Positions 8,459-50,951 of a stretch of DNA of 64,000 nucleotides are shown here, piece by piece. This stretch comes from an uncultured Acidobacteriota bacterium (GTDB taxonomy: Bacteria; Acidobacteriota; Vicinamibacteria; Vicinamibacterales; UBA2999): assembly GCA_963846685.1 (NCBI GenBank), contig CAWJWY010000002.1:1924023-1988022 (forward strand). The letters run 5' to 3'. The stretch's first letter is position 1. Each line of letters starts with the position of its first letter. The notes under the pieces are model-generated. The model saw nothing but the letters and a program-made list of their open reading frames with translations. It was not told the DNA's origin and did no database searches. Position numbers and translations under genes: made by a program.

Positions 8459-10135
8459 TCACGCTGGCGCGTTGGCCTGGACGGCAGAGTTTCCGGTAAC
8501 ACTGGCTCCCGGCCGCCGCGGCTCACCAACCTTGTAGCGTGCCGGGATGCCCAGCAGCTCGAGGCACAGCGGCGCAATGTCTACCGAGCGCAGGTGCCGC
8601 GGGAGGGCGCGGGGCGCATTCGCCAGGATGAGCGGGCTGAGCGAGTCGAGTGCATGCAGAGCGCCGTGCGAGGCGCCGCCACAATGGGCCTCGCCGCCGG
8701 GCACCTCGAACTCGCAGCCCGGCTGGGCGGTCACCCACAACTCGCCGCTCTGCTTCATCTCCAGGACGCCGGCGATACGCTCGAACGCGTTCGGATAGTC
8801 GCGCGACTCGATCAGGCGCCCGTCACGTTCGAGCCGCAGCACCTCGAGATCGCCGCGCCACGCCCACGCTGTGCCCCACGCATCCGACCCGCCATCAGCC
8901 GCTGTGCCCGGCCAGAAGTCGAGACGCCCCGCCGGCCCGAGCACGGTGTAACCGCTACCGTCGTCGGTCAGGGCTGATTTCCACATCACCAGGTCGACAC
9001 GCGGATCGCGCAGCGTGGCGCGGGCGACCCGCTCGACGAGCGCTGGCGACGGCCGTTGCAGGTAGATCTGCGCCGCCCGCATGTTGGGGCAGATCATGAT
9101 CTCGTCCTCCGGCCGCCAGCCCTTACCCAGGTCGGCGTGCGCGAACTCGCCCAGCACCGTCTGCAGCTCGATCACCGCCGCCTCGCGATCGGCGAGGATT
9201 TCGCAGTGCCCGTGATCGGATGTGACGATGACGCACGTGTCACGCATGAAGCGGTCGAACCCGCCCGCCGCATCGAACATCGCGCCAAGAGCACTATCCA
9301 CGCCCTGCAGCACCGGCAGCGCGGCGTGCGGACCGACCTTGTGGCTCTGGTAGTCGTTGTCGGCGAAATAGGCGACGGTGAAGTCCGGAAACGCGGCGTC
9401 GGCCGCGAGCTGCTGCAGCAGCTCCGCCGTCGACGCGTCGTCCATGCCGAAGCGATGGATGACGCCGCTCTTGCCGTGCAGCTTGCTGCGGCGCCGCTTC
9501 GTTTCGCGGCCGGTGACGAAATCGCCGAGGCTGAGCAGCTTTGGCCCTTTGACCGTCTCCGTCAGGGGCACACCCGGCAGCAACGCCAGGAGCCACGGCA
9601 CGTTCACCTTGTGAGTGACGATGCCGCGGTGGACCAGGTAGTTGAGGCATGCGGCGGAACGGCCGGCCTGCTCAACCAGCTCGAACATTGTCGGTGCCGT
9701 CAGGCGATCGCCGTTCAACCTCACCAGGAAGTCGCGCAAAAAAGCGCCGAACCCCTCCTTGGCGATCACCCAGAAATCGTCGCCGTAGTACGCCACCTCG
9801 CCGCGCGCATCGTCGAACCACGAGGCGCCGGCGATACCATGCTCCGCCGGATACGCGCCAGTGATGATCGAGCTGGTGGCGGCCGGGGTAATCGAGGGAA
9901 AGATCGTCGCCGACTGCTGGTGCATTTCCCCTGCGCCGGCGAGCCGCTTCAGGTTGGGGAGCAGCCCCGTCTGTACAGCCGGACAGAAGACGCGCGGCGA
10001 GGCCGCGTCGATGACGACGAGCAGGAGCTTCACGAGAAGAATGCTTGCAATGTGAGTGCCTCGACCGCGCGCACCGTCAGCTGGAGCAAGTGCGGCACTC
10101 GACGGGCGACCCGGCCGGGTGGCCTCCGCCGACAC
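8459..10135 (-). CDS. Alkaline-phosphatase-superfamily nucleotide pyrophosphatase/phosphodiesterase (type I phosphodiesterase family)
   Basis: LLVVIDAASPRVF, SITPAATSSIITGAYPAEHGI and TSDHGH motifs; start uncertain (90-nt overlap with the divergent ogt ORF suggests a later or alternative start). Confidence 0.7.
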   Translation of the reverse strand: MSAEATRPGRPSSAALAPADGARGRGTHIASILLVKLLLVVIDAASPRVFCPAVQTGLLPNLKRLAGAGEMHQQSATIFPSITPAATSSIITGAYPAEHGIAGASWFDDARGEVAYYGDDFWVIAKEGFGAFLRDFLVRLNGDRLTAPTMFELVEQAGRSAACLNYLVHRGIVTHKVNVPWLLALLPGVPLTETVKGPKLLSLGDFVTGRETKRRRSKLHGKSGVIHRFGMDDASTAELLQQLAADAAFPDFTVAYFADNDYQSHKVGPHAALPVLQGVDSALGAMFDAAGGFDRFMRDTCVIVTSDHGHCEILADREAAVIELQTVLGEFAHADLGKGWRPEDEIMICPNMRAAQIYLQRPSPALVERVARATLRDPRVDLVMWKSALTDDGSGYTVLGPAGRLDFWPGTAADGGSDAWGTAWAWRGDLEVLRLERDGRLIESRDYPNAFERIAGVLEMKQSGELWVTAQPGCEFEVPGGEAHCGGASHGALHALDSLSPLILANAPRALPRHLRSVDIAPLCLELLGIPARYKVGEPRRPGASVTGNSAVQANAPA

Positions 10136-21508: not shown

Positions 21509-24500
21509 TCAGCGAAGCGCATCGAGCGTGAGCCTGGCCTGCTTCAGGTCGTAGGTGTCGTGGCCCTCGGTGAACGACTCGAAGATCGGCTCTAGCAGCG
21601 CGCGCGCGCGGTCGCGGGCCACCGCCTCGTTCCGCGACGCCAACAGCGTGGCCAGCGTCGTTGCGCTGCGCAGCGCCCAGGCGCGGGCCTCCTGCTGGCA
21701 GGCCACCTCAATCGACTGCCGGAGCTCGGCTTCGGCGGCGTCTGCGTTCCCCGGCTGCTGCAGCAACAGCCAGCCTTTCATCCGCAAGACCTCCGGCAGC
21801 CACACCCGCTCGTCCCATCCCGGCCGCTCGATTTGTTGAACGCATTCTTCGAGCAGCTGGAATGCGGCATCGACCTCGCCCTTGCGCGCGAGCGCTTCGG
21901 CGAGCGCGCACTTGAAGTACAGGGACGTGGAGGTGGCCGCCGCCGGCATTCCAGGCAGTGATGCCACGGCGAAGCTGCGCAACCGCCTGGTCCAGATCGC
22001 CGAGACGTAGCCGCGCCAGCCCTTCGCCCAGGGGAACGAGCACCCTGGAGATGAGCGGGATGCTCTGCTCGCAACCGAGCAGGTGGGCCTCGCCGACTTT
22101 CTCGAGCAGTCGCTCGGGCTCGCCGCGATAGTCGAAGACGTAGGACCCCCAGGTCAGCGCCCAGCCGAGATCGAAGGGGTGGCCCAGCCGGCGCGCATGG
22201 TCATCCTTTTCGTCGCTGACCTGCTTGGCGCGCTCCGGGTAGCCGAGCATCCACAGCCACTGCGCCGAGAAGACGCCGACCGCGGTGCGGACATCACTGC
22301 CGGTCAACTCCTTCCAGTAGCCGGCGCGCTCCGGCGTGTACAAGGCGGTCGCGCTGTTACCGTGCTTGTCCGCGGCGGCGAGTCTGCCAAGGTAGAACTG
22401 CGAGGTCATGCTGCCGCGGTGACCGAGGATCTGCAGATCGACGTTGTTGCTCGTGTCGCCTTCTGCCAGCAGCCGCTCCGCCCAATGCGGCGCCTCAGCG
22501 ATTCGACCCTGCGTGACGGTGTTGACCCACATGCCCCACAGGCCGACGAGCAGGCTCTGCGGACTGTCCTGGCTGCCGGCAAGCCGCAGAATGGCCTTGG
22601 CGTTGGCGCCAACCTCGGGTTCGGCCCAGCCCTGGAAGCGCAGCCGGGCGGCGTGCAACGGCTCGCGCAAGGAGAGCTCCAGCGTGTCCCGCTCGGCGGA
22701 GGGCGGCAGCTGATCGACGACCGTCAACCCCTCCTTCAGGTAGGCAACGGCCTCCTTATTGGCCACCCTCGCCAGCGCCGCCTCGCCGGCGCGCCGCCAG
22801 AGTGGTACCGCCTCGGCGAGCCGTCCCGCCTCGGTGTAGTGGCGCGCCAGCAGCTCCGGTTCGTGGGCGACCGTTTCGGCGAATCGCTGCTCCAGCGCCT
22901 CGGCGATCCGGGCATGCAGCCGCTGCCGCTTGCTCCTGAGCAGCGAGTCGTAGGCCGCATCACGCACCAGTGCGTGCTTGAAGGTGTAGGTCGCTTCCGG
23001 CGGCGTGCCGCGGCGGAACACGAGTCCGGTTCCCACCAGTTGCTCGAGCTCCTCGTCGAACTCGGCGCCCGCGTACCGCGAGGCCGCCGCCAGCAGCTCG
23101 TAGGAGAACTCGCGGCCGATGCACGACCCGATTTGCGCCAGCTCGCGGACACCGACCCGGCGCCCGAGCCGCTCGATCAGCGACGCATTCAGCGTCTTTG
23201 GCACTTCCAGCGCCAGCGATTCGAGTGCGGTATAGCGGTCGGCCTCCTCGTGGAGAAGCGGCGACTCGAGCATCGACTTCGTCAGCTCCTCGATGAAAAG
23301 CGGCACGCCGTCGGCGTGCGCGACGATGCGGGCGAGCACCTGCTGCGGCAAGGCCTTCCCCTGCGTCACTTTGCCGACTAGTTCGTTGCCGAGATGCTGC
23401 GGCAGCCCGGTCAAGCCGATGGTGGCGACGTGACCGTAGCCATCGGCGCGCGGCGTGTACTGTGGGCGGTAGGTGAGCACCAGCATGACGCGCAGGCTGC
23501 GCAGCCGCGGCACGATCAGCTCGATCAGTTCACGGCTGGTCGGGTCGATCCAGTGCGCATCTTCGAAGACGATCAGCACCGGCTGGAGCCTGGAGAGCGC
23601 CTCGACCTGCGCGATCAGGGCATCGAGCATCTTCTCCTTCTGACGCTGCGGCGACAGTCCGAGTAGCGGGTAGCGCGTCGTCGGCAGCGAGAGCAGCGGC
23701 GCGAACAACGTCGCGGCTTCAATCCGTTGCGGTTGGCTGCCGACGAGTACGGCGTCGAGTTTGTCGAGTTTCTGCTCCGGCGTGTCGTCGCGCGTGAAGC
23801 CAGCGGCAAACTCCAGTTGCTCGACGATGGGGTGCAGCGGCGCGTTCAGCTGAAACGGCGAGCACTGGTAGCGCATGACGATGTGCGGCTCGAGGCGGAT
23901 ACGCTCGCTCAGCACCTGAGTGAGCCTGGACTTGCCGATCCCTGCCTCGCCGCTGAGCAGCACGACCTGTCCTTCGCCGCTCCGCGCCAACAGCCAGTGG
24001 CGCATCAGCAGCGCCACCTCCTCTTCGCGCCCGACCAGGTCGGTCAACGGCACGTCGCCGTGCACGGCGTCGAAGCGATCCCGGCTCCTGTTCACCGCGC
24101 GCACACGCCACGACCGCACCGGCTGGACGATGCCCTTCAAGGTGTGTTCACCTAGATCGGTCAGGTCGAAGAAGTTGCCGATCAGCAGCCTCGTACCAGG
24201 GTCGATCACCACCTCGCCGGCGCTGGCGACCCCTTCCTGAAGGCGGGCGGCAAGGTTCGGCGTCTCGCCGACTGCGAGCGAGTCACCGGCCGTGTTCTCC
24301 CGCGCCGCTTCGCCGACGACAACCGAACCTGTCGCCACGCCGACGCGAACCGCCAGCGCGCCGCCAGCGATACCTTTGACCGCCTCGACGATTTCCAGGG
24401 CCGCTCGAACGGAGCGCTCGGCGTCGTTCTCGTGCGCGTCGGGGAAGCCGAAGTAGACCATCACTCCGTCACCCAGATACTGCCTGACGTTACCGTCGTA

Positions 24501-24887
24501 GGCCTGGACGGTGGTGGTGCACGCCTGGAAGTAGGCGTCCCGCAGCTTCTTGACCTGTTCGCGGTCGAGGCGCTGGTTCAACTCGGTGTAACCCACCAGG
24601 TCGCAGAACATCACGGTGAGCTGCCGATTTTCGTCGTGAGACAGCGGCGTGCGTTCGAGCGCCTGGCCGGTGACGCGCCGCGGGGCCGGCAGGGCTACGT
24701 CGCGGCTGGCGGTCGTTGCCGCCGCCTGCAGCAGCCGCAGCGTGTCGCCCAGGTTCAGACCAAGCCCAATCAGGTCCTCGCGCGTCAGCGCCGGCAGCAC
24801 GTCGAAGTCGTCGATACCGTTCTGCACCAGGACCGAACGGCGGTGCGCGAGACCGTTCTGGGTGAGCCATTCGGAGAAGGACGCCAT
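21509..24887 (-). CDS. SAM-domain / adenylate-guanylate cyclase / AAA(STAND)-ATPase / TPR multidomain regulator; likely one frameshift near 21980
   Basis: N-terminal SAM-like segment; cyclase catalytic motifs (LTVMFCDLVGYTEL, YLGDGVMVYFGFP); P-loop VVLLSGEAGIGKSRL; C-terminal TPR region continues in the separate 21509..21982 frame. Confidence 0.7.
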
Positions 24888-24998: not shown

Positions 24999-27386
24999 AT
25001 GGCTGACATCCCTGGAGCGATCCGTCCGGCCGCTGCGTACCCAAGCCGGCGCACCGACGCCTTCTTCGACAGGCATCCGATCAGCGGCGCGACCTATACG
25101 ACGGCAAACCGCGCCGTCGTGCCGCTGGAACTGCAGTACGACGGCGGCGAGATGCTGCACATCTACGGCGAGTGCGCCAACCTCGCGCAGGTGGACGAGG
25201 CCGTCGCCGGAAGCGGTTACCGGCCGCTCCTCGTGGAACGCGCGGCCGGGCGCGCAGCAGCCGTCGCGCAGGTCTGGGCCTGCCGCTTCACGGACACGAC
25301 CATCGGACCCTACAGCGCTGTGTTCATCGTCCTCGTCGTCGTACCGCGCGACGTGCCAGCGGCGCGACGGTCGATCCGCACCGGCGGTCACAGTGCGGCT
25401 GCTGCGCTGGCGATGCTCGATGGCTCAGTCGACCCGGTCACCTGCGGCTACGAGAACCACGCGCGACTGTTCATGGTCCGCCTGATCGACACCACCGAGG
25501 TGGCGATCGATGTCGGGCGCGAGCGGATGGGCACCGACAAGCGGCCGGGCGGCATCGAGCTGACGAGAGATGGCCGCTATCTCCATCTCTCGGTCACGGA
25601 TCAGAAGCACCGCGGCGTGATCACCGCTCGTGTGCAGCTCGCCGATGATCCCTCGGCTTACCTGCCCGAGCTGGCGACGGCTGCAGCCGCCGCAGGGATC
25701 CCGCTCCGCCGGCTGCCCTTGGGAGCGGAGTACTGCTACCCCGCCGTCGCCCGGATTGGCCGTGGCCCAATCGCTACCTGGCAGTGGCGGAGTGACGTCG
25801 TTCCCGCATTCCAGCCAGTCGCACCTGGAGCCGTCATCATCGATGCCGCCTCGGAGGAAGGACGGATGCTGCAGGCATGGGACTTCACGCCGACGGTGCT
25901 TGGCTACATTGCCAACGTCCGCGGCGTGATCACCGGGCTCGGACGCGACGCCTCGGCGCGAGTGCATCTGCACCAGGCGGCCTCACCGCTAGACGAATCG
26001 TGCGGCTGGATGCGGCGATCGGCGGCGCTCGCGAGCGAACGGCTCACATCCGGGGCAGGAGGAGGATACGCAGTGCAGCAGCCCGCACGGGACGGATCGA
26101 CGATGTCGTGGGGCACGGTGGAGACCCCGGCGGTGCCGGCCACGGTCACCGCCGGCACACCCGTGGAGGTGGCCGTAGCAGTCTCACCTATCCGGCCAGG
26201 GCACGCGGTCACCGTTGACTACCGGGTTGACGGCGGGCCGTTGAGGCAGGTGACGGCGTCTCCGGGCACCCGGGCGCGGAACGTCAATGCCCGCCTGTTC
26301 CGGGCGAGTATCCCGGCGCACGCACAGGGACGTGTGTCGTTCCTGCCGGTGCTGCGGCTGGCGGGACAGCCGCTCACACCCCGGCTTGGCGAGTCGGGCA
26401 CCGCACTCGAATACGAGATTCCGGCCGGCGCACCGCCGTCCGGTGAGGCTGCTGCCCCAGATGCTTCTGCGACGACCGGGCAGCCGCAGTGGGCCTGGGA
26501 GGCAAGCTACCTTGGGTCGCTGTCGGCGCAACTGCGAAAGGAGAAGGTGGGTGTCACTCCAGACGGCTTGCGGATTGACTGGCATGTCATGCATGGCAGC
26601 TTCGCTGGCCCGGGCATCGAACTGAACGTGTTGCCGGGTGCGGCCGACTGGATGCGCATCCGCAAGGACGGCATCGGCATCGTCAACGTGCAGGTGTGTC
26701 TCGAGAGCCGCGACGGCGAGCGGCTCTATGGCGCTTACGGCGGCATTGCCGACCTCGGCCCCGACGGCTACGAGCGCGCCCTGCGTGATGACTTCGACGC
26801 CGTCCTGCCGGTTGTCGTCACGCCAACCTATGCAACGTCGGTCGCCCGGTTGCAATGGCTGAACCGGGCGCAGTGTCTCGGCGTGGGGCGGATGAACATG
26901 CCGGCGCTGCAGGTTGAGTTCGACGTTCACCTGGTGCGCGCAGGAGACCGGCTCGGAGTGTCAGCAGCCGGCCGGAACGGCGTGAGCGGCGCTGGCGGGC
27001 ATCCTTCGGCGGCGCCGCAGAGCCTGTACGCGCGGATGGGCGGCTACGACGTGCTTGCGGCGGTGGCTGACGATTTCATTACGTCGATTTCCTCGGATCC
27101 GCAACTCGGGCGGCTGTTCGTCGGCGGCTACCCGCCCGAACGGATGAACGCGGTCCGTCAGCACGTCGTCGAGTTCCTGTGTTCGATTACCGGCGGCTCG
27201 TGCTTCTATCTTGGGCGGGACATGAAGACGACGCACAGAGGGATGGGGATTACCGGCGCCGACTGGGAGATCGGCTTGCGCCGGGTAATCGCCGCGCTGA
27301 CCAAATCGCGCGTCGCCGCGCCCGAGCAAGCGGAGTTCGTCCGGATCATCCAGGGGCTACGAAGCACAATCGTCGAACGCCCGTAG
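24999..27386 (+). CDS. 795-aa multidomain protein: N-terminal beta-rich domain (ADC-like?), central DUF3237-like domain, C-terminal group-I truncated hemoglobin
   Basis: C-terminus YARMGGYDVLAAVADDFITSISSDPQLGRLF...THRGMGITGADWEIGL matches the bacterial globin (trHb) family; central GVTPDGLRIDWHVMHGSFAGPGIELNVLPGAADWMRIRKDGIGIVNVQVCLESRDGERLYGAYGG resembles DUF3237. Confidence 0.6.
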   Translation: MADIPGAIRPAAAYPSRRTDAFFDRHPISGATYTTANRAVVPLELQYDGGEMLHIYGECANLAQVDEAVAGSGYRPLLVERAAGRAAAVAQVWACRFTDTTIGPYSAVFIVLVVVPRDVPAARRSIRTGGHSAAAALAMLDGSVDPVTCGYENHARLFMVRLIDTTEVAIDVGRERMGTDKRPGGIELTRDGRYLHLSVTDQKHRGVITARVQLADDPSAYLPELATAAAAAGIPLRRLPLGAEYCYPAVARIGRGPIATWQWRSDVVPAFQPVAPGAVIIDAASEEGRMLQAWDFTPTVLGYIANVRGVITGLGRDASARVHLHQAASPLDESCGWMRRSAALASERLTSGAGGGYAVQQPARDGSTMSWGTVETPAVPATVTAGTPVEVAVAVSPIRPGHAVTVDYRVDGGPLRQVTASPGTRARNVNARLFRASIPAHAQGRVSFLPVLRLAGQPLTPRLGESGTALEYEIPAGAPPSGEAAAPDASATTGQPQWAWEASYLGSLSAQLRKEKVGVTPDGLRIDWHVMHGSFAGPGIELNVLPGAADWMRIRKDGIGIVNVQVCLESRDGERLYGAYGGIADLGPDGYERALRDDFDAVLPVVVTPTYATSVARLQWLNRAQCLGVGRMNMPALQVEFDVHLVRAGDRLGVSAAGRNGVSGAGGHPSAAPQSLYARMGGYDVLAAVADDFITSISSDPQLGRLFVGGYPPERMNAVRQHVVEFLCSITGGSCFYLGRDMKTTHRGMGITGADWEIGLRRVIAALTKSRVAAPEQAEFVRIIQGLRSTIVERP

Positions 27387-27389
27387 GCG

Positions 27390-28118
27390 TCAGCGCACGT
27401 CGATCGTGATCAGCGCGCGTAGGTCGTCAACGCCCTTCGCAACCACGAGCCCGGTGTAGGAGCCTGCCTTCGCCGCGCCAGGCACCGTCACGGACACGTG
27501 CACCTCCTGCCGCCCGCCAGCGCCGAGCCGAAGCTCCGGCGGTGAGACGTCGACGTTGCTCGCGACGATGCGTTCGCCATTGGCACTCAACAAGTCCGTC
27601 AGCAGCAGGGTCACGACCAGCGGCGTGCTTTCGTCGTTGGACACCGTCATCGCCACGCTGGCGCGCTGCCCGGGCTGAACCGGTCCTCGGCCGCGAAGCT
27701 CGCACACCGGCGGCTCCGTCGACGCGGGCTGCGCCCATCCTGCCGGCGCCCCACCCCGGCCGATGGCGCCCTGCAGCGTGGGCCAGGCCGCCGCGAGCTG
27801 GTCGACCAACTCGTGCACCTGCCGCAGCATCGGCGCGGTGCCATCGCGCTCCTGCACCCCCGGCCGCGCGGCGAGGTTGCGCGCCGACAGCACGCCCCTC
27901 GCCATTTCCTCGTCGAGGATTGATGCCGCCTCGGCAACGATGCGCGCTGGCGCCTGGGCCACGGCGTCCGACTCGCCGCCCACCTGTGCCGGGTTGCCGC
28001 GAAGCACCGGTGCCAAGGAGGACGGGAGCAGTTCCGATTCCGATCCCGGAAATGGGATCAGCCGGCGGGTGAGGCGGCTGGCGGCGTCGAGTGCCGGGCC
28101 GATACCGGGAATCGTCAT
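27390..28118 (-). CDS. Hypothetical protein, last gene of the encapsulin-linked operon
   Basis: ORF 27390..28355; probable start at Met 28118 (MTIPGIGPALDAAS...) 60 nt downstream of the polyprenyl synthase stop; beta-rich C-terminal half. Confidence 0.45.
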   Translation of the reverse strand: MTIPGIGPALDAASRLTRRLIPFPGSESELLPSSLAPVLRGNPAQVGGESDAVAQAPARIVAEAASILDEEMARGVLSARNLAARPGVQERDGTAPMLRQVHELVDQLAAAWPTLQGAIGRGGAPAGWAQPASTEPPVCELRGRGPVQPGQRASVAMTVSNDESTPLVVTLLLTDLLSANGERIVASNVDVSPPELRLGAGGRQEVHVSVTVPGAAKAGSYTGLVVAKGVDDLRALITIDVR

Positions 28119-28177
28119 CGGTTGAAGCACGCCGGGCGGCTGCCAACGCTTCTCGTCCACAACTACCTCCCTGAGAT

Positions 28178-29245
28178 CTAGAGATCCCGACGGACCACGT
28201 AGTCGATCACCTGTTTCACGAACGCCGTATCGCCGGACGGCGGCCGATCGCCGAAAGCGCGCGTGAATTCGAACATCGCCGCACCTGCGAGCTGTCGTGA
28301 CACCGACCGCGCGTAGTCGAAGCTGCCCGCAGCGCGCATGCGCTGCAGCATCCATTGCACATCTGCCGGTGAGCGTCCCGATCGCGGGCGGTTGAAGAAA
28401 CGGTCGATCGTCTCCCGGTCGGCCAGGCCGACTTGGCGCAGCACGTGGATCAGCATGAGCGTGCGCTTGCCCTCGAGCAGGTCGCCGCCGATCTCCTTGC
28501 CGTAACGCTTGACGTCGCCGGTCAGATTCAGCAGATCATCCTGGATCTGGAATGCGGCGCCGAGAAAAAAGCCGAAGCGGTTGAACCGGTCGAGGTCGAC
28601 GCCGTCACGCGTGGCAATCAGGGCGCCAATCCGGCATGGCTGGATGAAGCTGTACCAGCAGGTCTTCTTCAGCACCATGCGCAGGTAGTCGGACTCGGTG
28701 ACGTCGCAGCGATTCTCGCGGATCCAGCCCAGCTCCATCGCCTGGCCTTCGAGCGACTCACGCATCATGTGCTCGAACTCGTCGAACACCCGCCAGGTGA
28801 TGGTGCTGCCAAGTGGCGACAGGTTCTCGCGCAGCATGCTGACGCTCATCGCATTCAGCATGTCGCCGGCGTTCACCGCCAGCGGGACACCGTGCTCGGC
28901 GTGCATGGTCGGCAGGCCGCGGCGCAGGTCGCTCTCGTCTTCGACGTCGTCGTGCACGAGGAAAGCGTTGTGGAGCATCTCGATCGCGCTTGCCGATGGA
29001 CGAGCCAGCGCCTCGTCGCCGCCGAAGGCGCGGCACGTCGCGATGCACAGCGCCGGCCGCAGGCTCTTGCCGCTCCGCGCCAGATGTGCCGCGAGCGGCT
29101 CGTACAGGTAGCGGCGCGGCTCGCGGTCGGGAATTGCGGTGAGCAGGCGCAACACCGTCGATTCGCGGTACGCCGCCAGCCGCTCCAGGAACGGCGGGCC
29201 AGCGTCGCTGGCGGAAGGCTCGTACGGGTGCGCGGACATCGCCAC
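28178..29245 (-). CDS. Polyprenyl diphosphate synthase (trans-isoprenyl diphosphate synthase family, GGPP/FPP synthase-like)
   Basis: First and second aspartate-rich motifs (FLVHDDVEDESD; FQIQDDLLN); chain-length region LHNAFLVHDD. Confidence 0.8.
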   Translation of the reverse strand: MAMSAHPYEPSASDAGPPFLERLAAYRESTVLRLLTAIPDREPRRYLYEPLAAHLARSGKSLRPALCIATCRAFGGDEALARPSASAIEMLHNAFLVHDDVEDESDLRRGLPTMHAEHGVPLAVNAGDMLNAMSVSMLRENLSPLGSTITWRVFDEFEHMMRESLEGQAMELGWIRENRCDVTESDYLRMVLKKTCWYSFIQPCRIGALIATRDGVDLDRFNRFGFFLGAAFQIQDDLLNLTGDVKRYGKEIGGDLLEGKRTLMLIHVLRQVGLADRETIDRFFNRPRSGRSPADVQWMLQRMRAAGSFDYARSVSRQLAGAAMFEFTRAFGDRPPSGDTAFVKQVIDYVVRRDL

Positions 29246-29249
29246 CTGG

Positions 29250-31241
29250 CTACGAGGATTGCGAGATACGCACCTTCGTGCGTCGCGGCGCCGCGGCTGG
29301 GACGTTCGGGCCCTCGAACGAGGCCCGGCCCGCTGAAACGCCGACCACGCCTGCCGACCCTGGCGGCGCGTTCGGGATCCGATCCGCCATGCGCACCGCG
29401 AACATGCGCACCAGCCGTTCGATCAGGATCGTTGCATCGTGCCTGAGAGTACCCACCGGCCCAGACTGGTCGAACGCCGACGCATAGCCGCCGGCAAACG
29501 GGAAGGCGGCGCCGCCGCCCTGGAGCAGGCTATCGGGCCTGCCGGGATCGCCTTCGAGCGCGGCAATCCCGCGTTCGACCAGGTGGGTAAACGACAAGCC
29601 GGTGTTGACCAGCGTGTCGTCCCACGCCAGCCCCTGGCTGAAGCGGATGTAATCGAGCTCACGCCAGGGGATGAAGATTTCGGGCTCGTGCAGATCCCAG
29701 ATCGCGCAGGCAGGCGCCTGCGAACCTGACGCCTCAAGGATGCCATTGACGGCGTGACGAGCCGCCTCGTTTGCGGCCTCCATCGTCGCCAGGTCCGTGT
29801 TGGTGCGGACGTAGTCGGAGGCCAGGAACAGATTCGGAATCCTGGTGACTGCGTCGGGGCGCAGCTTCCAGGTGTCGACGAGATTGACCAGCAACGGCTC
29901 TTCATTCGCGGTGCGGCCGTCCTTGGTCCACTGGATGCCGGGATCGAGTGCCCAGTGGTGCAGGTCATCGTCGCTCAGGACGGTGATATCACCGTAGTTG
30001 AGGCTCAGCTTCAGCTGCGCCCAGACTTCCTGCTTGATCTCGTCGCTGGTGCATTCCTTTGCCGTCTTGCCGTTCAGTCCCTTCTTGTCCCACTCGGAAA
30101 TGTCGACCGAGATGATGCCCCTGACCTGGCCGTCGCCGTAGGTGGAGAGGTCGACCTTGTCCCAGAACTGCGCCTGGGAAATCGACGTCAGTGCCCAGGG
30201 TGAATCGACGTAGATGCTGTGGCCGCGCGTGAGCGGCACGTCCTTCGACAGGTAGATCTGGATGCCGTTCATCCACTCGGTGATGTCGTCGAGCGTGAAC
30301 AGGTGCTCGAGCGCGGGCTCGACGGCGATCATTTCAGGCGTGATCAGGTCGATGACATCTTCGACCGGCATGGCGAAGATGAAGTAGTCGCCGCTTACGC
30401 TCGTGCGCCTGCCGCCCTGATCGATCGATGCAGCGCGCACCCGGCTGCCGTCGAAGGTGACCGACTTCACTTTCGAGTCGAGGTGATAGCGCACGCCTCG
30501 TGACTTGAGGTAGTCGAGCCACGGATGGATCCACACGTCGTTGGTCGGGCCGTTGAGCACGCGGTCCGTGCTCGGGCCGGGCGTGACGATATCGAACAGC
30601 AACTGGACGAAGATGTTGCCGATCGTCTTGGTGCTGGCGGTCTCGGCCTTTGCAGCAACCAGCGAGCGGGTGATGCCGTGGCCGAGCAGTTTCTGGTAGG
30701 CGAGCGACTGTTCCTGTGCCTCGATGAACTCCCACCAGCCGATCTTTTCGTATTCGGTCATCCGCCGTTCGCGGCACGACGTCACGATCTGCCAGATCTT
30801 CGAAGCGAACAGCGCCAGCTCCGCATGCGACAGGCCCAGATCGCCGCCGAGAAAGCGGCCGAAATCGTCGAGCAGGACGCGAACATCGCCGATCGAGCGG
30901 ACGAACCGCGCAGTGAGATCGACGGGGTGGCGGCCGACACGGGCAAGCTGGCACCGCGTGGTGTCGACGAGGTTGTCGGCAACGTTGCCGTGGTTGCAGG
31001 GAATGCGGCGCATCGTGTCGACGACGTGCTTGTAGAAGCGCGGGAAGAAGCGGAAGCCGTGCTCGCCGGGGAGATCCTTGCGGCCGTCCTTGCCGGTGCC
31101 GAGGAGCGGCATGCTGCGCGCCTTGCCGCCGGGAATGGCGAGCGACTCGTAGATCTCGACCTCGAAGCCGCGCTCGATCAGCTCGTGTGCGCTGCTGAGG
31201 CCGGCGATGCCGCCGCCGAGGATGATGACTTTTGAAGACAT
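29250..31241 (-). CDS. FAD-dependent amine-oxidase/phytoene-desaturase-like oxidoreductase with extended C-terminus (663 aa)
   Basis: N-terminal Rossmann MSSKVIILGGGIAGLSSAHEL...E.Y.......GGK; C-terminal FAD-binding segment NLFLASDYVRTNTDLATMEAANEAARHAVNGI; ~150 extra C-terminal residues. Confidence 0.65.
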   Translation of the reverse strand: MSSKVIILGGGIAGLSSAHELIERGFEVEIYESLAIPGGKARSMPLLGTGKDGRKDLPGEHGFRFFPRFYKHVVDTMRRIPCNHGNVADNLVDTTRCQLARVGRHPVDLTARFVRSIGDVRVLLDDFGRFLGGDLGLSHAELALFASKIWQIVTSCRERRMTEYEKIGWWEFIEAQEQSLAYQKLLGHGITRSLVAAKAETASTKTIGNIFVQLLFDIVTPGPSTDRVLNGPTNDVWIHPWLDYLKSRGVRYHLDSKVKSVTFDGSRVRAASIDQGGRRTSVSGDYFIFAMPVEDVIDLITPEMIAVEPALEHLFTLDDITEWMNGIQIYLSKDVPLTRGHSIYVDSPWALTSISQAQFWDKVDLSTYGDGQVRGIISVDISEWDKKGLNGKTAKECTSDEIKQEVWAQLKLSLNYGDITVLSDDDLHHWALDPGIQWTKDGRTANEEPLLVNLVDTWKLRPDAVTRIPNLFLASDYVRTNTDLATMEAANEAARHAVNGILEASGSQAPACAIWDLHEPEIFIPWRELDYIRFSQGLAWDDTLVNTGLSFTHLVERGIAALEGDPGRPDSLLQGGGAAFPFAGGYASAFDQSGPVGTLRHDATILIERLVRMFAVRMADRIPNAPPGSAGVVGVSAGRASFEGPNVPAAAPRRTKVRISQSS

Positions 31242-31367
31242 CCGTAGTCCGACCGAACCATGTGATGGCGGGCCTCGCCGTCGTAGGGAGCTCTACGATG
31301 CCCGGCGCTCACACCTCTGTTCGGCAGTGGGCACGTGCCGCCACCGAAGAGGGCTTCCACCCAGCCC

Positions 31368-32633
31368 CTAACGCCGGCGCTTCACGCGGTTCTTGTTTAG
31401 CAAGAGGTCGTTGATGCGTGTCATCTGTTGACGCAGTTCGTCTTGGCCCTCCCTCAACGCGGCAATTTCGTCACCTAGACGTTCAAGTTCAGTCACGCGG
31501 GTACCCAAGTCCTGCATGCCAGCGCGCGCGGCCTTCGCCTCGCCGGTTCGTTCGCCGGCAGCCATGACTCCGAGCGCCGCTACCTGACTGGCCAGCTCGA
31601 TAGCTACCGTTTGTCTTTCGCGCGACTTCTGTCTGTGATCGTCATACCTGCCCGCGTCTTCGAGCTTCAGCGTCCTCACGGGAGCATCAGAAGGATCTCG
31701 ATGCCGCAATGTAAATCGCTCATACACGCGAAAAATGTGTCGGGCGTCGTCGGTAGTCTGAAGGAACTGAACCTTAGGGGGCGTTGCCACGACGAGGTCG
31801 ATGGTGTTGCTCGCGAGGGAGACGACTATTCCAAAGCCTTTCTGCATCACGCCAGAACGCAGCAGCGGTCCGTTCAGCAAAGGTGAGATTCTGTCGGCTG
31901 GCAGCACCAAGGAATGGCGTTCAGGCCGGTGCGCCTCAATAAACAGAGCGCTGTCGAGGACACAGGCGAATGGCCCTGGATGCGACTGCCGTTCCAGATC
32001 TGCTATAGCTCTGTTGATGGCAACTACAAGACGCTTACCCGTGGAACTTTCGTCGGGTTCGTCCCCAACGTCGTCCAGCGACGTGTCGATTATGAATGGA
32101 TCGGCGGAGGGAGCCTCGGTCAACCCAACAAGAAAATTCGGAGCCTTGACCGCAATCGTCAGCGTTCGTGGGTCGTCGTCGGGAGCACTCCGGACGCGGC
32201 GGATAACGCTCAACAGTGGCCGGAGGCCTGGCTTTACGTAGCCGTTGAAAACGATCTCGTCTTCCACCAGCGCCAGCGTCGTCGCCGCCCTGCGGAAGGC
32301 GAGCAGGGCACTCGAGAGGGATTCGTCGAAGAGCTGCTGTGCTGACAGCTCGACGTTTACCGTTAGGTTGAAAAGTTTGAGGGTCTCATCGTCAAGCACG
32401 GTCAACTTGGCTTTAGCGGCCGCGTGAACGTGGTCCGGGATGTCACTCGCATACGAATACATTTCGCCGTCGAAGGCGCTGAGCTCCTCCTTTCGCACGC
32501 TCTCGACATTGGCTCCGAGCGGCCCGTAACAAGGCAGAAACGAGCCCGCCACCGAAGCTTTGTTGAACGCTTCGGTCACGGCGGTCTGAACCTTCTCCCA
32601 CTGCGCGTCGCTCCATCCGGGTCCGTCAGCCAT
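31368..32633 (-). CDS. Family-1 encapsulin (Linocin-M18/HK97-fold) nanocompartment shell protein with ~105-aa C-terminal coiled-coil, Arg/Lys-rich extension
   Basis: GWSDAQWEKVQTAVTEAFNKASVAGSFLPCYGPLGANVESV parallels the EncA/T. maritima N-terminal helix region (W..l...V...A...LVGR..LD..GPLGA.V); LVEDEIVFNGYVKPGLRPLL vs EFEDEVIFRG; C-core RHIFRVYERFTLRHRDPSDAPVRTLKLE vs HPFRVLEALLLRIKHPDAICTLE; GGAGA SD 9 nt upstream of ATG 32633. Confidence 0.7.
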   Translation of the reverse strand: MADGPGWSDAQWEKVQTAVTEAFNKASVAGSFLPCYGPLGANVESVRKEELSAFDGEMYSYASDIPDHVHAAAKAKLTVLDDETLKLFNLTVNVELSAQQLFDESLSSALLAFRRAATTLALVEDEIVFNGYVKPGLRPLLSVIRRVRSAPDDDPRTLTIAVKAPNFLVGLTEAPSADPFIIDTSLDDVGDEPDESSTGKRLVVAINRAIADLERQSHPGPFACVLDSALFIEAHRPERHSLVLPADRISPLLNGPLLRSGVMQKGFGIVVSLASNTIDLVVATPPKVQFLQTTDDARHIFRVYERFTLRHRDPSDAPVRTLKLEDAGRYDDHRQKSRERQTVAIELASQVAALGVMAAGERTGEAKAARAGMQDLGTRVTELERLGDEIAALREGQDELRQQMTRINDLLLNKNRVKRRR

Positions 32634-32861
32634 GCCGTTCGTCTCCATTCGCCGCCTGGGGTGTGGCGCCGCGGTCTGTGCACAGTTCGGCGCGAGCGTG
32701 CGCGGATTATTAGCCGAGTTCGCGGTTGCCGGCAAATACAACCTGTTAGCTGCAGGCGCAGGGCACGCGCGGGGGCTTCTCCGGCTACGGCTTCTCCCGT
32801 CCCCGCTTGTGAAGTACCGTCACATCAGGCCGTCGATGCCGGGTCCGCTGCGCGGCACCCG

Positions 32862-33600
32862 GTCTACTCGTGGCGCTGGCGCGACATTGAACGCAACTGA
32901 ATCAGCGCCGCCGGCCGCGGCGCGACAGGCCGTTCCAGCGACGGTCCGACTTGAGGGACCGTGACACGGCGCAGCGGGTAAAACCGCCGCGCAGCGTGAG
33001 GGCAGCGCAGGTTACGGACCTGCGCCGGTCGCCGACGGCGGTGCGGAGCGGCGGTTTTTCCACGGTCACGAACGGAGGACCGGAGCGGCGCGGCACGCCG
33101 CGGCGCAGCGGCGGGGGAACCGACGCCTGCGTGCAGACATGCCGGGTCCGCTACGCGGCACCCGGCCTACGTGGCACCCGGCTACGCGGCACCCGGCCTA
33201 CGCGCTGACGTGGTTCGCTGTGAGCGCCGCGCGCAGATCATTGAACGCGCCCGGGTCAGCGCCGACCGGCCGCGGCGGGTCGGGCCGTTCCAGCGACGGT
33301 CCGACTTGAGGGACCGTGACACGGCGCAGCGGGTAAAACCGCCGCGCAGCGTGAGGGCGGCGCAGGTCACGGACCTGCGCCGGTCGCCGACGGTGGTGCG
33401 GAGCGGCGGTTTTTCCACGGTCACGAACGGAGGACCGGAGCGGAACGGCGCGGCACGCCGCGGCGCAGCGGCGGGGGGAACCGACGCCTGCGTGCAGACA
33501 TGCCGAGTCCGAGACGCAGCACCCGGCCTACGTGGCCCCCCTCTACGCGGCACCCGGCCTACGTGGCACCTGGCTGCGCGGCACCCGGCCTACTGGTGGC
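32862..33600. repeat. Tandem duplication (~355-bp unit, 2 copies, >90% identical) of a hairpin-rich non-coding element; each copy ends in 3-4 tandem 15-16-bp GCACCCGGCCTACG-type units
   Basis: gacggtccgacttgagggaccgtgacacggcgcagcgggtaaaaccgccgc... occurs at 32940 and 33295; nested perfect inverted repeats (ACGGTCC/GGACCGT; GCGCAGGT-tacgg-ACCTGCGC; GGTAAAACCGCCGC/GCGGCGGTTTTTCC); ORFs through it (32951..33208, 33171..33869) are Arg-rich repeat artefacts. Confidence 0.7.
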
Positions 33601-33858
33601 GCGTGCTGCGCGGAACCGCGGTCTACTGCTGCGGCACTGGGCGGACCCTACTGCGGCAGACGCGGCAACTTTGGTGGGACTTGATGACCGTCAAGAGCTG
33701 GCTCGAACACGCTATCCAGGACGCCGAACGCCGCGGCCTGCCTGGCCTCAAATCGCTGCTCGAGACGCTCGCCCGCTCGACCTCGGCGCTGCGCAGCGCC
33801 GACTGGAACAGCGATGCCGCGTCTGAACTCGCCGACCGCGCCCCGCGACGGCCGATCA

Positions 33859-35232
33859 ATGGACGCTAAGCTGCCGGGCATCGCCGACCTCGCCCGGGCG
33901 CTGCGCGCCGGCGAAACGACGGCACAGACGCTGCTCGAAGGGTGCCTCGAGCAGATCCGCGATCGCGATGGCGAGATCAACGCCTTCATCACCGTTCTCG
34001 CCGAACAGGCGCGCGAGCAGGCGCGGGTCGCCGACCGCGAGCTGGCCAGCGGCACCGACCGCGGCCCCCTGCACGGCATCCCGATCGCTCTCAAGGATCT
34101 GTACGACCTGCGCGGCACCGCGACGACGGCGGCCAGCAACGTGCGGCGCGAGCACGTCGCCACGAGCGATGCCACGGTGGTCGCCCGGCTGCGCGATGCC
34201 GGTGCGGTGTTCGTCGGCAAGAACAACCTGCACGAGTTCGCCCTCGGCACGACCAACGAGGACTCGGCGTTCGGACCGGTGCGCCATCCGCTCCGGCCGG
34301 AGCGCTCGCCCGGCGGTTCATCGGGAGGCTCGGCCGCGGCGGTGCTGGCCGGCATGGCCTGCGCCGCCATCGGCACCGACACCGGGGGATCGATCCGCAT
34401 CCCGGCGGCGGTGTGCGGCCTGGTTGGCCTCAAGCCGGCGAGCGGCGACCTGCCGACGACCGGGGTGGTGCCGCTCAGCGGCACCCTCGACCACCTCGGG
34501 CCGATCTGCCGCTCGGTTGCCGACGCGCGCCTGTTGTATGCGGCCATGCGCGGCGATGCTGCTGCGTCAGAGCAGCCGCCGCGATCAGCGCCGCACGGAC
34601 CGTCACCGCAGCCGCGGGGACTGCGCGGCCTGCGAATCGGCCTGTTGAAGGGCTACTTTACCGCGCTGCTCGACGCGCAGGTCGGCCACGCCTTTGGTGA
34701 GACATGCGCGCGACTGGCCGCGGCCGGTGCGGTTCTTGACGACGTGACGCTCGGCCACGCCGACGACATCGCCCCGGTCTACGTGCACATCGTCCTCGCC
34801 GAGGCGGCCGCCTACCACGCCAGGACGCTGGAACAGCGCGCTGCCGACTACACGCCGAACGTGCGCATCCGACTGGAGATGGGCCGCTACATACTCGCCG
34901 AGGATTATCTGCGGGCGCTGCACGGCCGCGAAGTCCTGCGCGGCGAAGTTGACGAGGCGCTCGCCCGCCACGATCTCCTGCTGCTGCCGTCGGTACCGGT
35001 GCCGGCAACGAGGCTGGGCGTGCCGACGGTTCGGATCGGCAGCAGCGAAGAACCAGTGCGTAACATCACGCTGCGATTGACGCAGCTGTTCAACGTCACC
35101 GGGCACGCCGCCATCACCATGCCCTGCGGCAGGACGGTAGACGGGCTGCCGGTCGGCGCGCAGTTCGCCGGTCGCAGCACCGCTGATCTACTGGAACGGG
35201 CCGCGGCACTGGAAAGCACGGTCCGCAGCTGA
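33859..35232 (+). CDS. Amidase-signature family amidase (GatA-like)
   Basis: GGSSGGSAAAVLAGMACAAIGTDTGGSIRIPAAVCGLVGLKP amidase signature; catalytic Ser-cisSer-Lys context; start at ATG 33859. Confidence 0.8.
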   Translation: MDAKLPGIADLARALRAGETTAQTLLEGCLEQIRDRDGEINAFITVLAEQAREQARVADRELASGTDRGPLHGIPIALKDLYDLRGTATTAASNVRREHVATSDATVVARLRDAGAVFVGKNNLHEFALGTTNEDSAFGPVRHPLRPERSPGGSSGGSAAAVLAGMACAAIGTDTGGSIRIPAAVCGLVGLKPASGDLPTTGVVPLSGTLDHLGPICRSVADARLLYAAMRGDAAASEQPPRSAPHGPSPQPRGLRGLRIGLLKGYFTALLDAQVGHAFGETCARLAAAGAVLDDVTLGHADDIAPVYVHIVLAEAAAYHARTLEQRAADYTPNVRIRLEMGRYILAEDYLRALHGREVLRGEVDEALARHDLLLLPSVPVPATRLGVPTVRIGSSEEPVRNITLRLTQLFNVTGHAAITMPCGRTVDGLPVGAQFAGRSTADLLERAAALESTVRS

Positions 35233-36688: not shown

Positions 36689-38068
36689 TCACACGACCAG
36701 CGGCAGCACCTTCGGAGTACCTAAACCCAGGCCCATCAGTGAATTGGCGATGGCACCATGGTCGCCGACGATCAGCGTCGTCAGCCGCTCCGGGTCGAGG
36801 TATTTGCTGGCCGCGGCGACGACCTCGCCACCGGTGACGGTGTTGACCCTCGGCACGAACTCGGCGAAGTAGGAGTCGGGCAGGCCGTAGAGCGCCAGTT
36901 GGGCAACCGAGCGGGCCACCTGTCCAGCGGTTTCGAACCCGCGCGGGTAACCCCGCGTCAGCGACGCCTTGGCCAGCGACAGTTCGCCGTCGAGCGGCGG
37001 CCGCGCGCCGCGGATGCCTTCGAGCTCGTTCAGCGAATCGCGAACGGCGTCGGCGGTGGCGGCGGTATGGACGCTCGCCTGCAACGAAAACGGCGCCAGG
37101 CCGAGACGCCAGTCGAACCCGGTGCGGGCGCCGTAGGTGTAGCCCTTCTCCTCGCGCAGCTTCAGGTTCACCCGACTGACGAACTGGCCGCCAAGGATCG
37201 CGTTCATCACCAGCAGCGCCGGGTAATCCGGCGAGTTGCGCCGCGCGGACAGATGGCCGATCCGCAACTCCGACTGCGCTGCGCCGTCACGCGGCACGAT
37301 TGCCAGGCGCGTATCTAACGCCATTTCGGGATCGATCGTGTCCGGCTGCGGCAGGGCAAGGTCGCCGGCCGCTCCAGCCTGCCAGCCGCCAAATCCCTGC
37401 GCCGCCACGCTGGCCAGCTCGTTGTGCGACATCGCACCTGCCACCACCAGGATGGCGCGGTCGGGCCGGTAGGTGGAGCGATGGAACGCCGCCACGTCAG
37501 CCTGGGACAGGCTGCGCAGCGCCCCGTCACTGCCAATCGACAGGTGGCCGTAGGGATGCGTGCCGTACATCAGGCGCAGGAACGCACGTTCCGCGACGGC
37601 GGGCGGCAGGTCCTTCAGTTGCAGCAGGCGGTCGAGCCGCAACTGCCGGACGCGCTCGAAGTCGGCGTCACGCAGGCTCGGGCTGGTGACCAGGTCTGCG
37701 AGCAGTGACACGCCGCGCGACGCGAGCCGCGCCAGCGTCGTCAACGACAGCACCGTGACATCCGGCGCCACATCGATGTCGAAGTCGGCGCCGATACGCG
37801 CGAGCGCGTCCGACACGTCGATGGCGCTCAACCCGCCGGTGCCCTCGTCGAGCATGTCGGCGGTGATGCCGGCGAGCCCTTCCTGGCTCGCCGGATCGAG
37901 GCCGAAGCCGGCCTTGACCTGCAGGACGAAGGTGATGACGGGAACGTTGTGGTGCTCGACGGTCCGAACCCGCAGGCCGTTCGGCAGGGTGTGATGGACG
38001 ATGTCCGGAAAGGTGAATGCCGGATCGCCACCGACGAGCGGCAGGCGTGATCGATCGGGCCGCGTCAC
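36689..38068 (-). CDS. M16-family peptidase subunit lacking HxxEH (non-catalytic partner)
   Basis: 459 aa, M16 fold features, no inverted zincin motif; overlaps the upstream M16 gene stop by 4 nt. Confidence 0.65.
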   Translation of the reverse strand: MTRPDRSRLPLVGGDPAFTFPDIVHHTLPNGLRVRTVEHHNVPVITFVLQVKAGFGLDPASQEGLAGITADMLDEGTGGLSAIDVSDALARIGADFDIDVAPDVTVLSLTTLARLASRGVSLLADLVTSPSLRDADFERVRQLRLDRLLQLKDLPPAVAERAFLRLMYGTHPYGHLSIGSDGALRSLSQADVAAFHRSTYRPDRAILVVAGAMSHNELASVAAQGFGGWQAGAAGDLALPQPDTIDPEMALDTRLAIVPRDGAAQSELRIGHLSARRNSPDYPALLVMNAILGGQFVSRVNLKLREEKGYTYGARTGFDWRLGLAPFSLQASVHTAATADAVRDSLNELEGIRGARPPLDGELSLAKASLTRGYPRGFETAGQVARSVAQLALYGLPDSYFAEFVPRVNTVTGGEVVAAASKYLDPERLTTLIVGDHGAIANSLMGLGLGTPKVLPLVV

Positions 38069-50875: not shown

Positions 50876-50951
50876 GGGCCTGTAGCGCAGTTGGGAGCGC
50901 GCCTGAATGGCATTCAGGAGGTCACCGGTTCGATCCCGGTCAGGTCCACCA
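50876..50951 (+). tRNA. tRNA-Ala (anticodon GGC)
   Basis: Cloverleaf: acceptor GGGCCTG/CAGGTCC with G3:U70; D arm GCGC-AGTTGGGA-GCGC; anticodon stem CCTGA/TCAGG with loop ATGGCAT; T arm ACCGG-TTCGATC-CCGGT; encoded CCA. Confidence 0.85.

Follow-up and report, generated by a model that had tools for sequence, protein, structure and literature searches.

We found that a 64,000-nucleotide stretch of DNA from an uncultured Acidobacteriota bacterium (from here on, the window) carries a new member of a branch of family-1 encapsulins which has been sighted before but is uncharacterised, and which is built round an isoprenoid-modifying pathway. The locus has four co-directional genes on the minus strand between positions 27390 and 32633. 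In this order they code for the encapsulin shell, an oxidase, a polyprenyl diphosphate synthase and a hypothetical protein with an Ig-like domain, and the gaps between them are small, as an earlier note on this DNA had described: 126 base pairs (bp), 4 (or 10) bp and 17 bp. By analogy, the locus reads as a small terpenoid pathway with a shell-confined flavin step, whose logic would be like that of the family-2B encapsulins although the shell is of the family-1 type. We propose a nanocompartment around an isoprenoid oxidation step, with the oxidase being loaded via its C-terminal extension, and we consider the chances of this proposal to be evenly balanced. The features on which the argument rests are the following (aa, amino acids; FAD, flavin adenine dinucleotide; GGPP, geranylgeranyl diphosphate):

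31368..32633, minus strand: encapsulin shell protein, 421 aa, divergent family-1 type, member of the 'New' cluster

31371..31688, minus strand: C-terminal extension of the shell protein, residues 316-421 (106 aa), with two predicted helices, heptads and a basic tip

29250..31241, minus strand: FAD-dependent oxidase/desaturase, 663 aa, amine-oxidase / phytoene-desaturase superfamily, COG3349-type; candidate cargo

29253..29279, minus strand: terminal peptide of the window oxidase, TKVRISQSS, last nine codons; putative divergent copy of the family peptide

28178..29245, minus strand: short-chain trans-polyprenyl diphosphate synthase, GGPP-synthase-like (PF00348, 211 bits)

The shell protein and its C-terminal extension

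The shell protein is a real, divergent encapsulin of the family-1 type, which agrees with the earlier note. It matched the Pfam model PF04454 (Linocin_M18) in two stretches with 81.7 bits (E 6.4e-23, gathering cut-off 24.3). Its score on the NCBIfam family-1 equivalog NF041155 (encap_f1) was 90 bits, below the curated cut-off of 100, and therefore it belongs to a divergent branch and is not a typical family-1 member. None of the NCBIfam models for family-2 encapsulins matched the shell at E <= 0.01, and PF00027, the cyclic nucleotide monophosphate (cNMP)-binding fold, gave no match on it either. Regarding the structure, a phmmer search against the PDB matched only family-1 shells (E 1e-13), in alignments that stop at around residue 315. 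The AlphaFold2 model, built from an alignment of 30 relatives, had a predicted local distance difference test score (pLDDT) of 81 and a predicted template-modelling score (pTM) of 0.73, and as far as residue ~325 it showed the shell fold with its strands, its helices and the helix at the N-terminus. When this model was compared with the PDB by Foldseek, every one of the top 50 matches was a family-1 encapsulin shell (TM(target) 0.75-0.81), with the best scores for those from M. xanthus, B. methanolicus and Q. thermotolerans, which are of the T=3 and T=4 types (E 1e-18).

The translation is identical to the database protein P0001, and the nearest relative shares 54% identity with it. The region of the N-terminal helix is the best-conserved stretch of the shell alignment (A1). 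Two insertions were found: around 42 residues between 143 and 213, at the start of the A-domain, are extra relative to 6NJ8, and the E-loop carries a variable stretch at 50-80. The pLDDT was low in both of these regions.

The tail of about 105 aa reported in the earlier note turned out to be 106 aa long. The GC content at third codon positions (GC3) is 0.67 both in the core and in the extension, and the two alternative frames are riddled with stops; therefore the extension is genuine coding sequence of the shell gene. No Pfam domain matched in it. AlphaFold2 predicted helices at 333-359 and 366-420, and a heptad register with 9 strong hydrophobic residues at the a/d positions extends over around five heptads (~373-411). 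The description of this tail as rich in arginine and lysine has to be restricted, because the basicity is confined to the last 12 residues (net +6, tip NKNRVKRRR), whereas the charge of the whole tail is mixed, with 21 K+R and 18 D+E; it is thus true of the tip and not of the entire tail.

In order to place this tail we compared it with the stretch after the conserved core in 112 shell relatives, whose median length was 17.5 aa, with at least 40 aa in 33 of them and at least 80 aa in 9. The tail of the window shell is the longest of the 112 (109 aa by this post-core count), and in this respect it is atypical, as had been claimed. Nevertheless, it does not define the clade. No homologous tail was found among the 112 relatives, and their own tails are mutually non-homologous, either charged and helical or rich in Pro/Ser/Thr, many of them with Lys/Arg clusters at the end. 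Judging from these alignments, the tail appears to be a lineage-specific elaboration and not a hallmark of the system. Two recent encapsulin reviews do not mention a C-terminal extension of family-1 shells, nor a flavin-oxidase cargo. The C-terminus of HK97-type folds emerges on the shell exterior near the symmetry axes (PMC11664910), and from this geometry the extension is expected on the exterior near the capsomer axes, in line with the outward orientation proposed earlier; five or six amphipathic helices of 55 residues could thus bundle above each axis.

Conservation of the neighbourhood and the candidate cargo

The gene neighbourhood is conserved far beyond chance in at least six phyla. 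A scan with the shell alignment, with one genome per species, gave 25 loci, 22 of which were used as related genome loci; they belong to Pseudomonadota, Acidobacteriota, Cyanobacteriota, Armatimonadota, Nitrospirota and Myxococcota. The oxidase gene is directly downstream of the shell gene in all 22, the synthase gene comes next wherever the contig reaches, and in most loci the gene of the Ig-like protein follows it. A DUF3237 protein and a cyclase-STAND NTPase are also kept in most loci. The two enzymes, with identities of 55-81% and 46-74%, are better conserved than the shell, with 36-47% in full-length matches, and the best-matching locus was L016. Shell-linked metagenome loci add to this picture: more than 350 shell relatives were found, the branch being abundant in soil and freshwater metagenomes, and one metagenome scan gave 572 oxidase relatives among at least 600 pattern matches. 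When loci were retrieved via the oxidase, we found an intact Linocin_M18 gene in L026, a tblastn match to the shell at the contig end in L028, shell fragments only in L027 and an unannotated gene of 357 aa at the shell position in L029. Shell, oxidase or synthase genes were broken into several frames in L012, L018, L022 and L027, all of them metagenome-assembled genomes; in L027 the shell fragments lie upstream of an intact oxidase gene, and such broken frames could be assembly errors or real decay.

One of these loci allowed us to identify the branch. Giessen & Silver in 2016 grouped encapsulin capsids into four sequence clusters and called the fourth one 'New' (bioRxiv 10.1101/085266). According to that preprint, its members have large outer-surface loop insertions, sit without exception in gene clusters that also code for lipid/isoprenoid functions and a P-loop NTPase, and occur in Cyanobacteria, Proteobacteria and Actinobacteria. 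Those of A. marina, Methylocapsa acidiphila and a Geodermatophilaceae strain formed particles of 35-37 nm in E. coli, the Acaryochloris homologue assembling as 35-nm shells, and no cargo, targeting peptide or function was named for the cluster. Our locus L010 (NC_009925, Acaryochloris marina MBIC11017) has the same gene order as the window, with genes for a cyclase-AAA and a DUF3237 protein upstream, and identities of 40% for the shell, 61% for the oxidase and 57% for the synthase. Since its neighbourhood is exactly as described in 2016, the window is a further member of the 'New' cluster. The cyclase-STAND protein corresponds to the 'P-loop NTPase' of the preprint. Literature searches for a described cargo of this clade gave this preprint only.

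The oxidase matched PF01593 (Amino_oxidase, 62.6 bits, residues 12-501) and PF13450 (NAD_binding_8, 38.6 bits), and it carries the GxGxxG motif for FAD binding at residues 6-15 (ILGGGIAGLS). Its catalytic core extends to residue ~540, followed by a conserved helix at 595-620, a disordered linker and the terminal peptide. All the NCBIfam scores were below their cut-offs, namely HpnE with 79.9 bits (cut-off 283), ZDS with 57 (622) and PDS with 37 (569), and phmmer against the PDB gave merely E ~7e-4. The best fold match of its model was the rice phytoene desaturase 5MOG; the model is of low confidence (pLDDT 61), and disorder-like over 622-660, after the helix. We rejected the naming of a substrate from this structure, because such a pLDDT supports the placement in the superfamily only.

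The end of the oxidase is of particular interest. Among its close homologues (66-73% identity to the window oxidase), 107 of 119 end exactly in [SAP]-G-[RK]-V-x-[IL]-[ILV]-P-[KRNQ], with the family consensus S-G-[RK]-V-x-I-[IL]-P-[KRN], and this peptide is preceded by the conserved helix (EATxLVERxVRxLAxRL) and then by a variable low-complexity linker. A position-specific scoring matrix (PSSM) of the peptide was scanned over 366,165 positions in six frames of the 25 loci and the window; at 14 bits or more it found 14 oxidase C-termini and 2 chance sites, and within this scope the motif was found on no other protein of the cluster. The four genes thus do not appear to be equal cargo candidates, since by sequence the shell-linked terminal peptide is on the oxidase only. 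The window copy, TKVRISQSS, keeps a K-V-R-I core, has neither the G nor the I-P found in the consensus, and resembles the variant R-[LI]-R-I-V-Q-K. A frameshift as the cause of this odd terminus was discarded, because no other frame yields the consensus peptide.

The C-terminal extension of the oxidase is linked to the presence of the shell. We scanned metagenomes with the oxidase alignment and obtained 80 loci (46-74% identity), taking as long those extensions with at least 60 residues; in shell-linked oxidases the extension is around 100 aa. A shell gene was adjacent in 26 of the 27 evaluable loci whose oxidase has a long extension or is fused to the synthase, against 2 of the 17 with a short C-terminus (Fisher p = 9e-9), and these two both end in GGVRI[VL]P. 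The synthase gene was adjacent in 36/38 and 3/23 loci of these groups, respectively. More distant shell-linked clades have the variant peptides G[GN][IV]RF[VA]EP, GGVRI[VL]Pxxxx and R[LI]RIVQK. A relaxed peptide core was present in 26 of the 29 oxidases that are linked to a shell or a synthase and in none of 18 shell-less ones, a result that is descriptive only because the pattern was written after seeing the data. The peptide of the oxidase tail may be the missing loading signal of this branch.

Regarding the synthase, its Asp-rich motifs were read in the translation as DDVED (first motif, FARM) and DDLLN (second motif, SARM), and an alternative start is the ATG at 29239. All the NCBIfam equivalogs scored below their cut-offs, GGPP_syn with 198 bits being far below, and the family-2 cargo model NF041169 gave 185 bits (cut-off 450). 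The nearest solved structure is the GGPP synthase of Thermus (1WMW, E 5e-50). The Phe at -4 and the Ala at -5 before the FARM presumably point to C15-C20 products, as in mutagenesis of the avian farnesyl diphosphate synthase. The catalytic domain is preceded by ~20-45 residues and followed by an ordinary C-terminus (..VVRRDL), without a long disordered domain like that of the family-2B cargo. Thus, the search of the downstream proteins for targeting peptides that had been suggested singled out the oxidase as the candidate and left the synthase without such a peptide.

In 13 metagenome loci and in L015 the oxidase and the synthase are a single in-frame open reading frame (ORF) of 973-1033 aa (L015 9841-12942; L077, L079, L082-L085, L090, L092, L094, L095, L098-L100). 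The oxidase part of this fusion clade is ~50% identical to the window oxidase, and no internal copy of the motif was seen in the linkers of the fusions. The clade keeps four genes, cyclase-STAND, Ig-DUF3237, shell and oxidase-synthase fusion, which therefore define the minimal set. A shell-DUF3237 fusion in L015 was also considered and rejected, because the DNA has a stop codon (TAA, 8880-8882) which is followed 15 nucleotides (nt) further on by a new ATG.

Other genes of the cluster and flanking DNA

The four genes are at the coordinates given in the earlier note; however, the functional unit exceeds 27390-32633, as it also takes in the second and third of the following features:

27390..28160, minus strand: Ig-like hypothetical protein, 256 aa, with a probably disordered N-terminus, a helix and an Ig-like beta-sandwich

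24999..27386, plus strand: four-domain fusion protein, 795 aa, convergent with the operon

21708..24887, minus strand: SAM, class-III nucleotide cyclase and STAND/AAA_16 P-loop NTPase with a helical-repeat C-terminus, 1059 aa

32706..32735, minus strand: sigma-70-like promoter candidate, ~75 nt upstream of the shell start codon, consensus match only

We moved the start of the Ig-like protein from 28355 to a GTG at 28160, 6 nt downstream of a GGGAGG Shine-Dalgarno sequence, and the resulting 256-aa product is identical to an independent database gene call. It has N-terminal linear motifs (an MxxYRRxP-type motif and LRRLIPFP), a conserved helix (AASILDEE..) and the Ig-like domain at the C-terminus. 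Its family has 470 representatives at E <= 1e-3, with LRRLIPFP in 15 of the top 25. Among the representatives P0242-P0390 the close members carry MxxYRRxP and LRRL[IL]PFP and the distant ones have Lys/Arg-rich low-complexity N-termini; the protein of L008 carries the second motif twice. Fusions of the Ig-like protein to a decarboxylase-like (ADC-like) domain were found in L006, L008, L021 and L022. Judging from the sequence, the N-terminal motifs could be a second targeting or docking peptide. A twin-arginine export signal (..TRRLIPFP..) is unlikely, because Glu/Asp follow and the mean hydropathy by hand is ~0.8.

The 795-aa protein consists of a weak acetoacetate-decarboxylase-like domain (16-330), a beta-rich middle domain (~338-500), DUF3237 (508-644) and a group-1 truncated haemoglobin (675-791). 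Its DUF3237 and decarboxylase-like parts occur as separate genes beside the cluster in other loci, a DUF3237+globin fusion was called in L026 and L027, and L016 has a full-length match. The globin domain is HbN-like (E 1e-10 to PDB 2GL3), and its fusion to DUF3237 hints that O2 or NO plays a part in the pathway. The characterised DUF3237 proteins are small cofactor-free enzymes, and one of them, PhnH, is said to act on a prenyl group. PhnH carries out the hydroalkoxylation of an alkene (PMC11969235), and PhcF and PhcG are decarboxylases (PMC9942872).

The cyclase-STAND protein is probably a regulator. Homologues with 27-71% identity were found in 20 of the 22 related genome loci, and also in L026, L027, L029 and the fusion clade. 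The presence of a cyclase gene parallels the cNMP-binding-fold domains on the shells of the family-2B terpenoid encapsulins.

The promoter candidate (TTGCCG-18 nt-AATAAT, 9/12 matches) is the sole such site in 27000-34000, where 0.5 are expected by chance. No terminator-like sites were found on the operon strand in the intergenic gaps, and the idea that the 126 nt separating the shell and oxidase genes contain a terminator or an attenuator was rejected, since none was found and the fold of this gap is unremarkable (z = 0.02). The shell gene has a GC3 of 0.67 against 0.85 for the neighbouring genes. Actually, in almost all the loci (L001-L028) and phyla it is 10-20 points under the GC3 of the adjoining genes for oxidase and synthase, for instance 0.35 against 0.54 in A. 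marina; therefore this deficit is a trait of the family and not a sign of transfer, and a recent horizontal replacement of the shell gene was rejected.

Between the shell promoter and an amidase gene there is a tandem duplication of ~355 nt (32830-33600), whose copies are 94% identical over 32911-33110 / 33266-33465 and 92% identical over 33113-33202 / 33474-33563; in addition there is a third copy, which is partial, and there are internal inverted repeats (23-32 nt). The duplicated unit had no Rfam match, and the Rfam scan of the whole window found a single tRNA gene, at 50876-50948 on the plus strand. A peptidase of the M16 family is encoded a few kb from the cluster here (36689-38068, minus strand) and in A. 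marina (L010, 13990-15480), with 28% identity; it was not matched in the other genome loci and is therefore probably a coincidence.

The proposed compartment and its relation to known systems

The mechanism that we infer would run as follows. The shell protein would self-assemble into a T=3-like particle of ~35 nm, and the FAD oxidase/desaturase would enter the lumen via its C-terminal extension, that is, helix, flexible linker and terminal peptide. The GGPP-synthase-like enzyme would partner it, either carried in alongside or supplying it through the pores. Isopentenyl and dimethylallyl diphosphate, which are small and soluble, would be converted in the confined space to an oxidised C15-C20 isoprenoid, and the shell would protect the cytosol from H2O2, the by-product of the flavin reaction, or from an intermediate that is reactive or hydrophobic. 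The DUF3237 module, like its relatives perhaps a cofactor-free cyclase/decarboxylase enzyme, would process the product, and the decarboxylase-like and Ig-like proteins may act there too. The cyclase-STAND protein would regulate the system. The external coiled-coil tail of 106 aa with its basic tip would probably bundle over the capsomer axes; alternatively, it might tether the particle to a partner or to an anionic surface.

The oxidase is favoured as the cargo because the succession of enzyme, linker and terminal peptide, together with the adjacency to the shell and the strict co-inheritance, is the layout of family-1 cargo. The synthase, which has no peptide, an ordinary C-terminus and in one clade a fusion to the oxidase, would thus be co-enclosed by association or feed the lumen. 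An isoprenoid-linked nanocompartment, as suggested in the earlier note, is still the best reading, although the clade itself had already been sighted as the 'New' cluster. The neighbouring enzymes are indeed not classical family-1 cargo. A more elaborate version would be an encapsulin organelle of a functionally new type, a regulated terpenoid-oxidation reactor, with the oxidase and the synthase both enclosed via the [RK]-V-x-I-[IL]-P peptide as a targeting signal not recognised before, the DUF3237 and decarboxylase-like proteins finishing the product, the cyclase-STAND protein switching the system, and, in lineages like the present one, basic-tipped external tails gating the axial pores or anchoring the particle to a membrane for product delivery; we consider this version rather unlikely.

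Several points weigh against the enclosure of the oxidase through its tail. The terminal peptide is absent from the fusion clade although the shell is retained there; therefore the C-terminal signal is not a universal loading route. As far as the sequences can tell, its loss on fusion would fit a role in docking to the synthase equally well. The copy in the window scores -3.4 bits on the family PSSM and fits only the post hoc relaxed core, and the oxidase peptide differs from the canonical family-1 motif (LxxGSL-type). The genes of classical family-1 cargo are usually upstream of the shell gene, where here there is often a DUF3237 gene, and enzymes of the phytoene-desaturase type are usually membrane-associated. 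Since the model of the oxidase is poor, the class of its substrate follows only weakly, and since the cluster contains neither a terpene cyclase nor a squalene/phytoene synthase, no name can be given to the product.

Some of these points feed an alternative that also takes the cluster as one system. Here the peptide would dock the oxidase onto the synthase, and the shell would enclose something other, or act as a scaffold, or store a hydrophobic product. The peptide does track the synthase as tightly as the shell (36/38 and 26/27) and is lost exactly where the synthase is covalently fused, as expected if the fusion replaces docking, and the LRRLIPFP motif of the Ig-like protein could be the true shell-binding peptide. 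However, the architecture of the oxidase is that of the classical family-1 cargo, in which the folded enzyme comes first, then a flexible and variable linker, and at the very C-terminal end a conserved short peptide (PMC8346489). Furthermore, none of the other cluster proteins that occur in all the clades has a conserved terminal peptide. Comparative data cannot separate shell-loading from synthase-docking, because shell, synthase and extension always travel together; on balance we regard docking to the synthase as unlikely.

That the enzymes are merely co-regulated neighbours, with the cargo of the shell encoded elsewhere or the shell being empty or vestigial, seems to us distinctly improbable. 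The terminal peptide of the window is the most divergent of those scored, our 64 kb belong to a contig of at least 3.3 Mb, and a census of 2021 illustrates 'Minor' family-1 operons without defined cargo or targeting peptides (PMC8346489, supplement), all of which would suit it. Nevertheless, the genes are strictly co-inherited over six phyla whether they are retrieved via the shell or via the oxidase, the oxidase extension depends on the shell (Fisher test above), the shell ORF is intact with a highly conserved N-terminal helix, and a regular-expression search of the ends of all ORFs of at least 80 aa in the window found no canonical GSL-type targeting peptide. A remnant of a prophage HK97 capsid, or an anti-phage system made of a capsid-like protein and a cyclase-STAND sensor, is highly improbable. 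The HK97 fold is common to encapsulins, STAND NTPases are common in defence systems, and the cyclase domain matched PADLOC Pycsar cyclase models (E ~1e-15); but these last matches span the generic class-III cyclase domain only. Moreover, the shell, the Ig-like protein and the 795-aa protein had no match among the PHROG families and the shell none among the PADLOC models, the structural neighbours are all encapsulins and not phage capsids, and the genes conserved beside that of the shell code for metabolic enzymes, whereas terminase, portal and protease genes are absent.

Our preferred interpretation, the shell-enclosed oxidase, gives a specific candidate for the cargo, and another for the targeting peptide, to a branch that has been without cargo or function since it was sighted in 2016. 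The minimal gene set (cyclase-STAND, DUF3237, shell, oxidase and synthase) and the natural fusion variants make the question directly testable. Few functions of encapsulins are known, namely the storage of iron or sulfur, peroxide and stress enzymes, and two terpene cyclases. If the interpretation is true, flavin-dependent isoprenoid oxidation would join the compartmentalised reactions, the peptide would be a second, orthogonal family-1 loading tag for engineering, and the tail would be a natural case of C-terminal surface decoration on a family-1 shell.

Compared with the 'New' cluster as described in 2016, the window shares the surface-loop insertions, the isoprenoid genes, the P-loop NTPase and the gene order of A. 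marina, and it adds the 106-aa coiled-coil tail, the decarboxylase-like/DUF3237/globin fusion and a divergent oxidase peptide. With the classical family-1 systems (DyP, ferritin-like, IMEF, hemerythrin) it has in common the HK97 protomer with the N-terminal helix, the membership in PF04454, and a candidate cargo which adjoins the shell and bears a short C-terminal peptide behind a flexible linker. It differs from them in that the candidate cargo is an FAD oxidase encoded downstream of the shell, whose peptide is without the GSL-type core, in the sub-cut-off NCBIfam score, surface insertions and variable external tails of the shell, and in the conserved neighbourhood of 5-7 genes with a signalling NTPase.

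The family-2B encapsulins, with 2-methylisoborneol or geosmin synthase as cargo, are likewise protein shells tied to isoprenoid metabolism with a polyprenyl synthase in the operon, and they also show a link to cyclic nucleotides, in the form of a cNMP-binding-fold domain on the shell where the window has a nucleotide cyclase gene beside it. However, the window shell is of the family-1 type, without a cNMP-binding insertion or a family-2 model match, its synthase has no long disordered targeting domain, and there is no terpene cyclase in the cluster. In the family-3 system of Mesorhizobium (PMC11664910) an HK97-type shell also carries a helical C-terminal fusion, predicted on the exterior and bundling above a symmetry axis; there it consists of four partly hydrophobic helices conserved in the clade, whereas the tail of the window is soluble, charged, of the coiled-coil type, with a basic tip, and non-conserved. 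Thus, this branch differs from all the characterised family-1 systems in its cargo candidate, its peptide, its surface features and its neighbourhood.

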